Source: Candidatus Kerfeldbacteria bacterium (lineage in GTDB: Bacteria > Patescibacteriota > Patescibacteriia > UBA10025 > JAHIVO01). Taken from it: 64,000 nt of DNA. Shown piece after piece: positions 3,459 through 8,145 of the stretch. How positions within the stretch are numbered: position 1 is the stretch's first letter; each line of letters opens with the position of its first letter. The stretch lies in the NCBI GenBank assembly GCA_016214565.1, contig JACROE010000002.1, positions 472,007-536,006 of the forward strand. Direction: 5' to 3'. Position numbers and translations under genes: made by a program. The notes below the pieces were generated by a model, which saw nothing but the letters and a program-made list of their open reading frames with translations, did not search any database and was not told where the DNA came from.

Positions 3459-3824
3459 CTAGTTGGTCAAGTCGTTGGTCTGAGAGACCACGAAGATGAC
3501 GATTGCCCAAGCGAGCAAGACGATAATCAAACCAATAACGGCGGCGGAGATGACTTTCTTGGCTGAAGCGACTTTTTCTTCATTACCACCAGCGGTAATC
3601 CACTGGAAGCCACCGATTAAAATCATAATAACAGCGATCAAGCCGAGGAATCCTAATACCCACTGAACGACATTGATCACGGTTGACTCGAGGTCAGCGG
3701 TGCCGAGACCAAAAGTGGTTCCGAGCGTGCTGCCCACGTTCACCTGTGCTGATGCAACTGCTGGAAGAGCTAACACGGCAACGAGCGCGATGAGAGAAGC
3801 AAATTTTTTCATTGTATATTTCAC
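3459..3824 (-). CDS. Small secreted two-helix protein, VirB2/TrbC-type (T4SS-pilin-like), paralog 1
   Basis: Signal peptide (ALPAVASA) followed by two hydrophobic helices. Shares the conserved motif GGFQWITAGGNEEKVASAKK with the two upstream paralogs. Confidence 0.5.
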   Translation of the reverse strand: MKYTMKKFASLIALVAVLALPAVASAQVNVGSTLGTTFGLGTADLESTVINVVQWVLGFLGLIAVIMILIGGFQWITAGGNEEKVASAKKVISAAVIGLIIVLLAWAIVIFVVSQTNDLTN

Positions 3825-3920
3825 CCCCTTTCGTTATTAAAGGATAATACGTTATATCGAATAATCAGACTTTTGTCAAGGATACGCACCTATTATACAC
3901 AGTTTTCGCGAAAAAGTCAA

Positions 3921-4313
3921 TCAGTTACCAAACGCCCCGCGGACTTCTTCGAAGATAAATTTAAGAATTGAATAGCTTAATGTTATGACCAGTATTCCCA
4001 GTGTCGCCCAAACAAGCGTGTCTTTTGCTTTTTTAATCCGTTCTGGATTGCCGGCAGATATGAGTAACTGGAAACCGCCCAGGATAAACATAAATAATGC
4101 AAAGACATCCACTGCCGCCAGAGCCAACTGCATAACGCGCAGCATAACATCTAGGAGATTGATTGGCTTATGATCGGCAGTTTCTCCAATCGGATTGGGG
4201 AGTGTCGGGCCTTCTTGGGCCAGGGCCGATGGTGCTGGCAACAAGGCAGAAAAAACCAGTACACTAGTAATCAGGGCAAACATGAGCAGATGAATTCGTT
4301 TCGTGGTTGTCAT
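3921..4313 (-). CDS. Small secreted two-helix protein, VirB2/TrbC-type (T4SS-pilin-like), paralog 2
   Basis: Signal peptide (PSALAQE). Motif ILGGFQLLISAGNPERIKKAKDTL followed by a hydrophobic helix. Confidence 0.5.
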   Translation of the reverse strand: MTTTKRIHLLMFALITSVLVFSALLPAPSALAQEGPTLPNPIGETADHKPINLLDVMLRVMQLALAAVDVFALFMFILGGFQLLISAGNPERIKKAKDTLVWATLGILVITLSYSILKFIFEEVRGAFGN

Positions 4314-4336
4314 AGGTTCATTGTATCACTAAATAA

Positions 4337-5887: not shown

Positions 5888-5888
5888 G

Positions 5889-7265
5889 CTAATATCCTAA
5901 TTGAATTTTTTGGGCGGCGGTTTTTACAGCTTGCTGCATGGTCGTTGGATCCTCGAGAGCCGCTTCGATCATTTCTTTGAATGCAGTATCCACGGCGAGT
6001 GGGTCGCGGCCATGATACCAACTTTGGGCGGTTAATGCCTGTTCTGCCTCGGCGGCCGTCTCCGGATTTTGCAACTGCTCCTGAAGGACCGATCGGACAG
6101 AGCTGGTCTGGTTAGTACTCTCAAGATATTGCTTCACTCGCGCCGGGCTGCTGATAAATTGCAGGAAATTCCAAGCTTCATTGGGGGCTTTGGTTTTTTT
6201 AGCCACTGTGTATACCCAATAATTTGCATAATTGACGTTGGCGTTTGGATCCACCTGGGGGATGGCCACAATGTCATAATCAACGCCTCGATTTTTTGAC
6301 ATGATTTCCGCTTCATTGTAACGATAGCCGAAGAAAAAGGCGAGTTCGCCTTGGGCGAATTGATCAAGGGCGTTGGGTTGTTCGGCGTTCCAGGTGTAGA
6401 CCGCTTTTTGTGGGTTAGCAAAATCGGTATAGAAACGAAGCGCTTCAACCCCCGGTAGATAACTGGCATCGCTGGTCGCGGCACCAGCGAAACTGATGGT
6501 ACTGCCGCGAGTCATCGTGGTTCCATTCTGGAGCATGAGCAGTGTCAGAATGTCTTGGGATCGAATGACGTTTTCGGTGGTACCGAGAGCGGTGGCAGCT
6601 CGCACGATATTTTGCTGCTCGTCTACGATGGTCAAGCGCGTCACGGCGCTGGTAAATTCGTTCCAGGTTTGCGGTGCTTGCACGAGGGTTGCTTGATTCA
6701 GCAGTTCACGATTAACATACATGACCAGCGTGTCGATACCCAAGGGTAATCCATAGACGGCATTGTCTGCTACGACATCGCTATAGACGACGTCGACGTA
6801 ATTGCGTCGCACGTCATTGGCTGACAGGGACGTATCCGTCTGCATGGTAATCTGCGTTTCGGTTTTGAAGAGAACCTTCTTCTTGGTATAGTAAGCGACT
6901 TTTGTGGTTTTGGGGATTGGGGTAATGAATTCAGTCTTGTATTTGGTTATCCATGAAGCAGGGAGCGCGTAGATGTCTGGGCCGGTGTCAGTCGCCCAAC
7001 CTTTCAGCAAGCGATCTTCATATTCTTCGTTGCGCAGCTTTGTGTATTTAAACGTAACGTATGGGTGGGCACTCGTGTACGCATCAAAGAGCGGCTGCAA
7101 GTCGGTAGTGTCATCAAACACCCCCCACACTTTTATAGTGACGGGCGTCGGGGTAACCTCTGACTGGGAACCGATAATAATAAAGACAACTCCCAAAATC
7201 ACCAGGGCAATAAATCCAAAAAGTGCCAGTATGAAAATTTTTGATAATCCGCGTTGGTTATTCAT
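5889..7265 (-). CDS. ABC-transporter family-1 extracellular solute-binding protein (sugar type), N-terminally membrane anchored
   Basis: 458 aa. N-terminal TM anchor, then a periplasmic-binding-protein-like sequence (KVWGVFDD...GPDIYALPASWI...WNAEQPNALDQFAQGELAFFFG). The stop lies 1 nt before the start of the downstream pilin-fusion gene. Confidence 0.55.
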   Translation of the reverse strand: MNNQRGLSKIFILALFGFIALVILGVVFIIIGSQSEVTPTPVTIKVWGVFDDTTDLQPLFDAYTSAHPYVTFKYTKLRNEEYEDRLLKGWATDTGPDIYALPASWITKYKTEFITPIPKTTKVAYYTKKKVLFKTETQITMQTDTSLSANDVRRNYVDVVYSDVVADNAVYGLPLGIDTLVMYVNRELLNQATLVQAPQTWNEFTSAVTRLTIVDEQQNIVRAATALGTTENVIRSQDILTLLMLQNGTTMTRGSTISFAGAATSDASYLPGVEALRFYTDFANPQKAVYTWNAEQPNALDQFAQGELAFFFGYRYNEAEIMSKNRGVDYDIVAIPQVDPNANVNYANYWVYTVAKKTKAPNEAWNFLQFISSPARVKQYLESTNQTSSVRSVLQEQLQNPETAAEAEQALTAQSWYHGRDPLAVDTAFKEMIEAALEDPTTMQQAVKTAAQKIQLGY

Positions 7266-7269
7266 GGGG

Positions 7270-8145
7270 TTAATCAGAAACCTTTTTCTTTAAATATGCG
7301 CGCAAGTCATCTCTCAGATCAGGTCGCTCTAGGGCGTAATCAATGTTTGCCTTGAGATATTCGAGCTTGCTGCCCGTGTCGTAGTAGGTTCCATTTTGTA
7401 TTTCGCAAGCGAATACTTTTTCTTTGCGCATGAGGGCATTAATAGCATCAATCAGCCAGAGCTCATTATCTTTGCCCGGCTTAAGTGCATTGAGATGGGG
7501 AATAATGCCAGGGGTAAAAATGTAGCCACCGAGCAAACCTAGATCCGAGGGGGCGTCGGCTGGCTTAGGTTTTTCGACAATCGCCTTTATGTTGAAAATA
7601 TTTTTTGCTACAAGATCAATATCAGCGATGCCATAATGATTGATGCGAGTCGGCGGAACTCGGAGCGCGCTGATGACCGTATTGCCATATTTATTAAAGG
7701 CATCAATTAATTGGCGTAAGCGCGGGGGTCGGCTGGCGATGAATTCGTCACCCCAGAGTACCGCAAACGGTTCGTCCTGCCCGATGACATGCTGAGCGCT
7801 GATGACCGGGGTCGCATTGCCATAGGGGCCTTTCTGGCGCACATAAATAAAGTTTGCCATCTTAGCTATGGCGCGTACTTCTTCTAGTTTTTCTGTTTTC
7901 CCAGATTCCTTAAGCTGTTTTTCGAGTTCGGGGGAGTAATCAAAGTGGTCTTCCAATGATCGTTTTTGCCAACTCGTGACGATAATAATGTCTGTGATAC
8001 CTGAGGCCACCGCTTCTTCGACGACATATTGAATGATTGGCTTGTCAACAATTGGCAGCATTTCTTTTGGCTGCGCTTTTGTCACAGGCAAAAAACGCGT
8101 ACCAAAACCGGCGGCGGGGATAATAACTTTTGTGACTTTTTTCAT
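7270..8145 (-). CDS. galU: UTP--glucose-1-phosphate uridylyltransferase
   Basis: [40 protein letters not shown] N-terminal signature and overall GalU-length NTP-transferase fold. Confidence 0.85.
   Translation of the reverse strand: [291 protein letters not shown]

Follow-up and report, generated by a model that had tools for sequence, protein, structure and literature searches.

Why should a bacterium keep a set of pilin genes apart from any secretion machinery and place them behind the genes for a UDP-glucose enzyme and a sugar-type solute-binding protein (SBP)? The question is raised by a 64-kb stretch of DNA (the window hereafter, meaning the whole stretch that was analysed) from Candidatus Kerfeldbacteria, a tiny groundwater bacterium that belongs to the GTDB class ABY1 of Patescibacteria according to its entries in Table S1 of PMC12102498. 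Five genes follow one another in one direction on the minus strand of this window: a galU-like gene, an SBP gene, and three genes for pilin-like proteins of 516, 130 and 117 amino acids (aa), to which we refer as the long, the second and the short pilin. A life in attachment to host cells is assumed for Patescibacteria, and in their sole genetically tractable species a type IV secretion system (T4SS) and a VirB2-like pilin array are essential; what the pilins do in that species, nobody knows. We find that the whole class ABY1 keeps a fixed set of three pilin types apart from T4SS genes and joined to an SBP and a UDP-glucose enzyme, and we consider it probable, on balance, that the products of this cassette form a filament or anchor of three parts at the cell surface, with a disulfide-rich stalk as its adhesin, and that this structure cooperates with the tethered SBP. 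The cassette thereby offers testable candidates for host contact, namely an adhesin subunit and the glycan that it recognises, as well as a compact and conserved marker for comparative work.

The three distal proteins belong to one pilin family

Two of the three distal products pass the gathering cutoff of the family PF18895 (T4SS_pilin; 26.6 bits), the short pilin (MBI5037527.1) with 49.5 bits and the second pilin (130 aa, without Cys, MBI5037528.1; 3921-4313, minus strand) with 31.1 bits. The long pilin (516 aa, MBI5037529.1, HZC01_02395; 4337-5887, minus strand) stays under this cutoff with 20.0 bits, but an identity of 42% across 78 aa links its N-terminal module to the short pilin (E = 3e-14), and because its hairpin is in this way homologous to that of the 117-aa protein, all three proteins fall into one family. 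A precomputed PF18895 match is, moreover, present in many orthologues of the 516-aa protein. In a search of 5.8 billion proteins, the long pilin retrieved 33 sequences at E ≤ 1e-3, its own record included; the matches with a named source all come from Patescibacteria, and several of them are called ‘pilin’ by NCBI.

The first-pass annotation of this DNA, made from its letters alone, had described the three products as pilin-like proteins of the VirB2/TrbC type that have in common a signal peptide, a pair of hydrophobic helices and a sequence motif, and in all these points it is supported. A hydrophobicity scan finds in each protein a signal-peptide-like segment and two further hydrophobic segments, and the motif [FW]-x-[LI]-[IQ]-[ST]-[AG]-G-[GN]-[NP]-E-[KR]-[IV] occurs in all three, with a loop of the form G-G-N-x-E-K-[IV]-x3-K-K that is kept across homologues; judging from these alignments, the motif reflects homology, not chance. 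In the long pilin, the signal peptide (residues 1-31) is followed by a short N-terminal outside segment with C48 and C56 and by the hairpin (residues ∼58-134), whose two helices AlphaFold2 (AF2) places at residues 58-93 and 98-134, whose loop reads SGGNPEKIQEGKK, and which is joined by an EWWGGG linker to a Cys-rich ectodomain.

Links to more distant pilin families are faint. None of the three window proteins matches PF04956 (TrbC/VirB2) at E ≤ 0.1, and hhalign comparisons with Agrobacterium and Brucella VirB2 gave a probability below 3%, in what is a weak test, as the VirB2 sequences were approximate. Sequence and profile searches of the PDB with the pilins returned no pilin and no useful match. 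The model NF045849, which describes the Mbov_0395 family, was matched by the three proteins with 34 (34.4 for the 117-aa pilin), 22 and 19 bits (E = 1.3e-8, 8.7e-5 and 8.1e-4), against a cutoff of 40.

Across four loci, each position of the array has its own orthologue, with cross-locus identities of 73-74% for the 117-aa type, 49-66% for the 130-aa type (five loci) and 36-45% for the long type, and paralogs inside one locus are only 21-36% identical to each other. By these sequence comparisons, the cassette is a set of three fixed orthologous types instead of a variable array. The 117-aa type is the best conserved of the three and reaches up to ∼10 copies in more distant related arrays.

The gene of the short pilin almost certainly starts at the ATG at 3812 and hence covers 3459-3812 (minus strand), as opposed to the 121-aa open reading frame (ORF) of 3459-3824, because the alternative start, the GTG at 3824, falls inside the ribosome-binding site GAAAGGGGGTGA (3821-3832, minus strand) upstream of that ATG. 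The same start is used by GenBank and by 500-odd homologues (among 524 relatives of the 117-aa pilin).

Members of the family are also found outside such arrays. A second 117-aa paralog, 71% identical to the short pilin, lies elsewhere in the same genome, alone beside a P-type ATPase, and solitary paralogs of this kind (63-76% identical; L007 514-867, L009 10001-10351, and L011-L013) stand directly upstream of a P-type cation ATPase, a position that is kept in at least five genomes, the window's own included. Two other PF18895 proteins, P0031 and P0032, carry other outside domains, PG_binding_1 in a protein of 360 aa and Big_5 in one of 760 aa, and the pilin hairpin seems to be reused as a carrier for surface domains.

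A Cys-rich ectodomain follows the hairpin of the long pilin

The Cys-rich ectodomain of the long pilin comprises residues 150-516 (4340-5440, minus strand). Of the domain sketched in the first-pass annotation, about 360 aa with some 60 Cys and eight GCC motifs, the extent and the eight motifs were right and the Cys count was too high: the protein has 50 Cys, of which two lie in the N-terminal outside segment and 48 in the ectodomain, corresponding to six in each of eight repeats. The repeats follow the consensus G-C-C-[VKL]-x3-10-C-x6-8-C-x8-29(aromatic)-C-x4-8-C, with GCC[V/K/L] motifs at residues 163, 223, 277, 312, 348, 399, 438 and 476, and the domain as a whole has an acidic composition in which N, T, S and G are abundant. 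In 19 aligned homologues the ectodomain Cys are mostly invariant and their number is even in every case (46-66), with five to nine GCC motifs; shorter orthologues (256-344 aa) have just one or two.

Located after the second helix of a hairpin with both ends out, the ectodomain must, on this predicted topology, lie outside the cell, a compartment in which 24 disulfides could form. AF2 models it as a series of repeats, each a small β-hairpin or sheet with a short helix, and the mean predicted local distance difference test (pLDDT) rises from 75 for the full protein to 81 for the ectodomain alone.

This module is rare. When 1.84 billion representatives were searched exhaustively with phmmer, residues 150-516 matched 16 clusters, in all of which the match begins at about residue 145-160, straight after the pilin module. 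The ectodomain has no Pfam family and no significant PDB match, and a Foldseek search of the PDB with the full-length 516-aa model, the structural counterpart to these searches, returned nothing at E ≤ 1e-3. The eight GCC-based six-Cys repeats look new and, being well predicted, make a disulfide-rich module worth solving structurally. Hevein-like chitin binding was considered for the domain and dropped; the Cys spacing is superficially alike, but the domain lacks the aromatic residues for the ligand and gives no Chitin_bind_1 match at E ≤ 0.1.

The cassette is conserved with its galU and SBP genes

The first of the five genes encodes a putative UTP-glucose-1-phosphate uridylyltransferase, similar to GalU (291 aa, MBI5037531.1; 7270-8145, minus strand), so named in GenBank (UTP--glucose-1-phosphate uridylyltransferase), which aligns over the full length of TIGR01099 (1-261 of 261) with 315.9 bits against a cutoff of 326.8 and matches PF00483 with E = 9e-35. 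The second encodes the SBP (458 aa, no Cys, MBI5037530.1; 5889-7265, minus strand), with 66 bits to PF01547 (SBP_bac_1; cutoff 26, E = 7.6e-18); its nearest solved structures are binding proteins of sugar ATP-binding cassette (ABC) systems, with E-values down to 1e-10. Residues 4-39 of the SBP form an N-terminal transmembrane anchor. Tethering to the surface is, in fact, found throughout the SBP orthologues (L002-L082), with differing anchors: in the window's clade a transmembrane helix that follows an invariant G-[LVIM]-S-K, and in distant loci the lipobox of a lipoprotein. The G-LSK motif could be part of a plain signal anchor, which is the simpler explanation, or a prepilin-type cleavage site of class III.

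The genes are closely packed. The first-pass annotation had the five co-directional genes right and gave spacers of 1-90 nt; along the array they are actually 4, 1, 23 and 96 nt, the SBP gene starting 4 nt past the galU stop and ending 1 nt ahead of the start of the long pilin. The unusual coupling of galU and an SBP gene to pilin genes, which it had pointed out as well, is borne out, and its conservation reaches well outside this genome. Five loci with homologues of the long protein share one order, from NTP_transferase through SBP_bac_1, the long pilin, a ∼130-aa and a ∼117-aa pilin to DUF2079 and a convergent membrane protein of ∼540 aa. The order galU, SBP, long Cys-rich pilin, 130-type and 117-type pilin is found in six independent loci with differing flanks, which upstream contain PGA_cap, an MFS protein or, in the window, an SMR-like protein.

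For a broader view, we scanned the GTDB species representatives with a profile of the 130-type pilin, a single-copy anchor, and analysed the resulting 69 loci by blastp and ORF analysis. Their titles name Kerfeld-, Komeili- or Uhrbacteria or a ‘Patescibacteria group’. An SBP homologue is present in 57 of the 69; in six of the other 12 the contig stops at the array, and six are among the more distant matches (29-37% identity to the query). A galU homologue occurs in 44 of the 69, mostly directly upstream of the SBP gene (34 of the 62 arrays analysed). The longest pilin is the first gene after the SBP in 60 of 62 arrays, and in nearly all lineages it has a large number of Cys, 8-68 of them behind the hairpin. 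Many of the representative contigs that carry the cassette (L019, L022, L024, L026, L027 and ∼20 more, from binchicken/SRP co-assemblies) are titled ‘uncultured Gammaproteobacteria bacterium’, evidently a placeholder or a wrong taxonomy.

Might this order be inherited without a functional link, with galU and the SBP serving general envelope or sugar metabolism and the pilins a T4SS encoded at a distance? These reduced genomes preserve the order of genes in general, and galU is missing from 13 loci that still hold the SBP gene and the array. The flanks, however, differ from locus to locus (PGA_cap, MFS, SMR), yet the core order persists where SBP identity has fallen to 33-40%. In addition, the gap between the SBP gene and the long-pilin gene is between -8 and +12 nt in 42 of 51 loci, and these overlaps and short gaps argue that the two genes are co-translated. 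We thus regard an order kept by inheritance alone as quite unlikely.

The cassette is chromosomal, vertically inherited and typical of the class ABY1 of Patescibacteria. The window, part of a contig of 1,116,013 bp from a metagenome-assembled genome, looks like ordinary chromosome: its GC content is level (0.42-0.52 across the 64 kb), and it carries 23S and 5S rRNA, two tRNAs and genes for DNA polymerase I, holA and SSB. A tblastn search with the 117-aa pilin against 72,556 plasmids gave zero matches and hence no sign of a mobile origin. Origin from a mobile element, such as an integrative and conjugative element (ICE), was considered and ruled out by the even GC content, the conserved chromosomal neighbours and the fact that no integrase or relaxase family was found.

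Transcription signals divide the array

A promoter-like site, TTTACT-17-TATAAT with a TG extension (8172-8200, minus strand), precedes galU; it comes from a consensus scan alone, with 10 of 12 matches. Two further, tandem σ70-like promoters lie in the 96-nt spacer ahead of the short-pilin gene (3851-3920, minus strand), TTGACT-17-TATAAT at 3920-3892 and TTGACA-17-TATAAC at 3879-3851. An alignment of this spacer from six loci has an invariant TTGACA hexamer and a nearly invariant TATAAT, which makes the last gene a transcription unit in its own right as well. The array is closed by an intrinsic terminator (3398-3425, minus strand) with a 12-bp stem followed by a T-run, a hairpin of -25.7 kcal/mol that is more stable than any of 200 shuffled versions (z = -6.7). 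Of the single five-gene operon proposed in the first-pass annotation, the co-directional layout and the strong terminator are thus borne out; the single unit has to be qualified, given the conserved internal promoter.

The array stands apart from type IV secretion genes

Within the window, a scan of most ORFs of at least 110 aa (short overlapping ones were skipped) found no VirB4, VirD4, VirB6, PilB or secretin family, and there is no VirB3 in the 64 kb either; that the window holds neither an assembly ATPase nor a secretin had been noted from the start. The absence extends to the flanks of the galU/SBP-type loci: among 71 unassigned flanking ORFs of at least 520 aa (38 clusters) from the 69 loci, the only VirB4-like protein is found at L078, and the galU/SBP-type array is consequently physically separate from any T4SS. 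Elsewhere in the genomes such systems may occur: VirB4 is listed for eight of the 11 Kerfeldbacteria assemblies read in Table S1 of PMC12102498, including the genome of the cassette locus L036.

L078 is a saccharibacterial locus, retrieved with the 130-type profile, in which seven PF18895 genes lie beside PrgI and a VirB4-like ATPase (P-loop_TraG and AAA_10), without galU and SBP. Two of its seven pilins also exceed the PF04956 cutoff of 27.9 bits, scoring 29.4 and 34.8. Through this locus, an indirect chain of homology leads from the cassette pilins to pilins of a true T4SS locus.

This separation invites an explanation that does without a filament, in which the PF18895 hairpins would be two-helix anchors that hold the SBP and the Cys-rich stalk in place, for instance for the capture of host glycans, by analogy with the bindosome. 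Such a static role would fit the lack of an assembly ATPase near any galU/SBP-type locus, the tethering of the SBP in all cases (by a transmembrane helix here and by a lipobox elsewhere) and the tight coupling of its gene to that of the long pilin, as well as the unrelated outside domains on other PF18895 proteins (PG_binding_1, Big_5) and the solitary 117-aa paralog beside the P-type ATPase. The saccharibacterial homologues, in contrast, stand inside a T4SS locus, and the arrays of Southlakia are essential together with the T4SS (PMC10633639). Three conserved subunit types with a multiplied short type are also more typical of the subunits of a polymer, and the annotated loci have no ABC permease that would take a ligand in. 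Weighing these points, we find an exclusively static anchor rather improbable.

Possible glycan-type neighbours downstream

Directly downstream of the array lies the gene of a polytopic membrane protein of the DUF2079 family (658 aa, MBI5037526.1; 1384-3360, minus strand; PF09852, E = 2.5e-51), with about 11 hydrophobic segments and a C-terminal soluble part. It stands behind the terminator and is probably transcribed separately from the array. Facing it is a second polytopic membrane protein (3-1397, plus strand), cut by the start of the window and without a Pfam family, whose orthologues have ∼540 aa. In closer loci this protein stays convergent to DUF2079, and in related loci PMT_2, GT87 or a second DUF2079 is found at or near its position. 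We found no relative of DUF2079 with a solved structure by sequence search, and no mention of it in the literature searched.

Sets of this kind, made up of DUF2079, the ∼540-aa family, GT87, PMT_2 and MptA_B together with GT2 and GT4, recur downstream of the cassette (window 3-3360; L002 14729-21683; L015 14530-20589), and the region looks like an envelope-glycan neighbourhood.

The pilus itself might be the substrate: UDP-glucose from GalU would be passed to a lipid carrier, from which membrane enzymes of the GT-C type, DUF2079 and the convergent polytopic proteins, would glycosylate the pilins or the stalk outside the cell. The position of galU at the head of the cassette in 44 of the 69 loci speaks for this route, as do DUF2079 and the convergent polytopic proteins after the array in closer loci, the PMT_2, GT87, MptA_B, GT2 and GT4 families nearby in related loci, the small SMR/EamA-like protein just upstream of galU, and an ectodomain rich in N, T and S. 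However, comparison with shuffled sequences showed no enrichment of N-x-S/T sequons for 11 homologues; DUF2079 follows the array in only 29 of the 69 loci, is absent from the other 40, and in the window is set off by the strong terminator; and no polyprenyl-phosphate glucosyltransferase was identified in the window. Furthermore, DUF2079 is a presumed member of GT-C. A glycosylated pilus hence appears doubtful to us.

A model for the cassette

We favour a surface filament or anchor built from the three non-redundant, VirB2/TrbC-like PF18895 pilins, each made with a signal peptide and a helix-loop-helix membrane hairpin. Insertion by the Sec machinery and cleavage of the signal peptide would leave both ends of the hairpin outward and the basic GGNxEK loop in the cytoplasm. 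The 117-aa protein is the candidate major subunit, a bulk role suggested because it is the most conserved, has a strong promoter and ribosome-binding site of its own, and is the type multiplied in related arrays; the single-copy 130-aa protein may serve as an adaptor or initiator. The 516-aa protein would be a minor subunit that presents, as an outward stalk or adhesin, a fully disulfide-bonded rod of eight GCC repeats. Together the three may form a short filament or a membrane-anchored surface complex, whose assembly may or may not depend on a T4SS from another part of the genome. At this same place on the surface, the co-translated, tethered SBP would recognise or capture glycans or serve as a scaffold, and an associated envelope glycan would draw on UDP-glucose made by GalU. 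A precedent is the pilin array that is essential for the epibiotic growth of Southlakia (PMC10633639).

Several observations weigh against this proposal. The 64-kb window contains no T4SS core gene, and none lies within 10 kb of a galU/SBP-type locus; neither BPD_transp_1 nor a sugar-type ABC_tran lies within 10 kb of the SBP gene in five annotated loci. Since gene order in this clade is strongly conserved in general, and the neighbourhood of the other 117-aa paralog is conserved too, synteny alone is weaker evidence than it might seem. Finally, the filament, the disulfides and the ligand are all putative.

Other features of the window

Near the cassette, the window encodes a single ABC system, an exporter of the ABC-2 type (11710-13763). 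A few kb upstream of the cassette, a stand-alone Peptidase_C39 without a fused ABC transporter is encoded (11125-11742, minus strand), as it also is at L002 (4606-5109), and thus in at least two genomes. The 23S and 5S rRNA genes (27538-30830, minus strand) are accompanied by no 16S anywhere in the window, and an HD-domain ORF (31894-32655) lies upstream of the 23S; the rRNA operon looks unlinked. Two adjacent large proteins of secreted type, one with Lamin-tail domain (LTD) and PKD and the other with Beta_propel, are encoded at 43755-48379 (plus strand), and Beta_propel and LTD proteins like this pair are also found in the flanks of related loci. From 55809 to 63998 (plus strand), a frame that stays free of stops for at least 2,730 codons, without a Pfam match at E ≤ 0.01, runs past the 3′ end of the window and is probably part of a giant protein.

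Comparison with known systems

VirB2-like pilin arrays of Patescibacteria are already published, with an essential array in the T4SS cluster of Southlakia (PMC10633639), 441 arrays of 2-11 genes across 383 assemblies (PMC12102498) and a review of such arrays in PMC12857230; they are most abundant in Microgenomatia and Saccharimonadia (PMC12102498). The pilin-like array is thus not unusual per se (PMC10633639; PMC12102498); unusual is its linkage to galU and the SBP, which the first-pass annotation had so described. SBP, GalU and DUF2079 are terms that do not occur in the main text of PMC12102498, and our literature search on T4SS_pilin, DUF2079 and Mbov_0395 led to nothing beyond the two papers on Patescibacteria T4SS (PMC10633639; PMC12102498). 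As we found no description of it, the cassette looks new in being unlinked from a T4SS and linked to galU and SBP, with three fixed pilin types and a Cys-rich stalk.

The cassette resembles the Patescibacteria T4SS arrays (Southlakia epibionticum ML1 SEML1_0006-0019; Nanosynbacter TM7x) in its PF18895 membership, its tandem divergent paralogs, its chromosomal location and its lack of a relaxase. Its paralogs are 21-36% identical, compared with a reported mean of 25% in Patescibacteria arrays, and one such T4SS locus, L078, was retrieved by homology with the cassette's own 130-type profile. It differs from them in lying behind galU and SBP, not beside VirB4, PrgI and VirB6, and in having three fixed types with a Cys-rich ectodomain on the first gene. 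To the Mbov_0395 family of Mycoplasma ICEs (NF045849) there are specific, sub-threshold matches over the hairpin and a common occurrence in T4SS contexts of the monoderm type; the scores, though, stay below the cutoff of 40, and the cassette genes are not on a mobile element. For the Cys-rich repeats, the comparison to draw is with small disulfide-rich modules of the Kazal/follistatin type.

In F- and T-pili, both termini of the pilin are outside, and a major subunit is combined with a minor tip or adhesin. The cassette pilins share with VirB2, TrbC and TraA of Gram-negative T4SS the signal peptide, the two helices, the short basic loop and, as predicted here, the outward termini, which would bring a domain fused to the C-terminus to the surface, and the logic of a major subunit with a minor, adhesin-like one (VirB5 at the tip) is what we propose for the cassette. 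Unlike those proteins, they have no PF04956 match and no significant profile or structure match to VirB2, and their host is a monoderm; unlike in systems with VirB2 and VirB5, neither VirB5 nor VirB4 nor VirB6 is found near the cassette, and the adhesin-like part is fused to the pilin module.

The bindosome of Sulfolobus, in which the small pilin-like proteins of the Bas system position sugar-binding proteins at the cell surface, offers a further parallel. The Bas proteins resemble type IV pilins and have signal peptides of class III, and their system also includes an assembly ATPase and a membrane protein. By analogy only, both systems couple a sugar-type binding protein genetically to small pilin-like proteins in a cell without an outer membrane; in contrast to the Bas proteins, the cassette pilins are VirB2-like and have no adjacent ATPase. 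Carried further than we would consider likely, the analogy would suggest that ABY1 Patescibacteria uncoupled a VirB2-like pilin set from its T4SS and rebuilt it, from the tethered SBP, a pilin-fused disulfide-rich stalk with a fold not seen before and two more pilin types, as a sugar-linked organelle of attachment that senses or harvests glycans, possibly glucosylated through GalU and GT-C enzymes, and thus as a bacterial counterpart of the bindosome.

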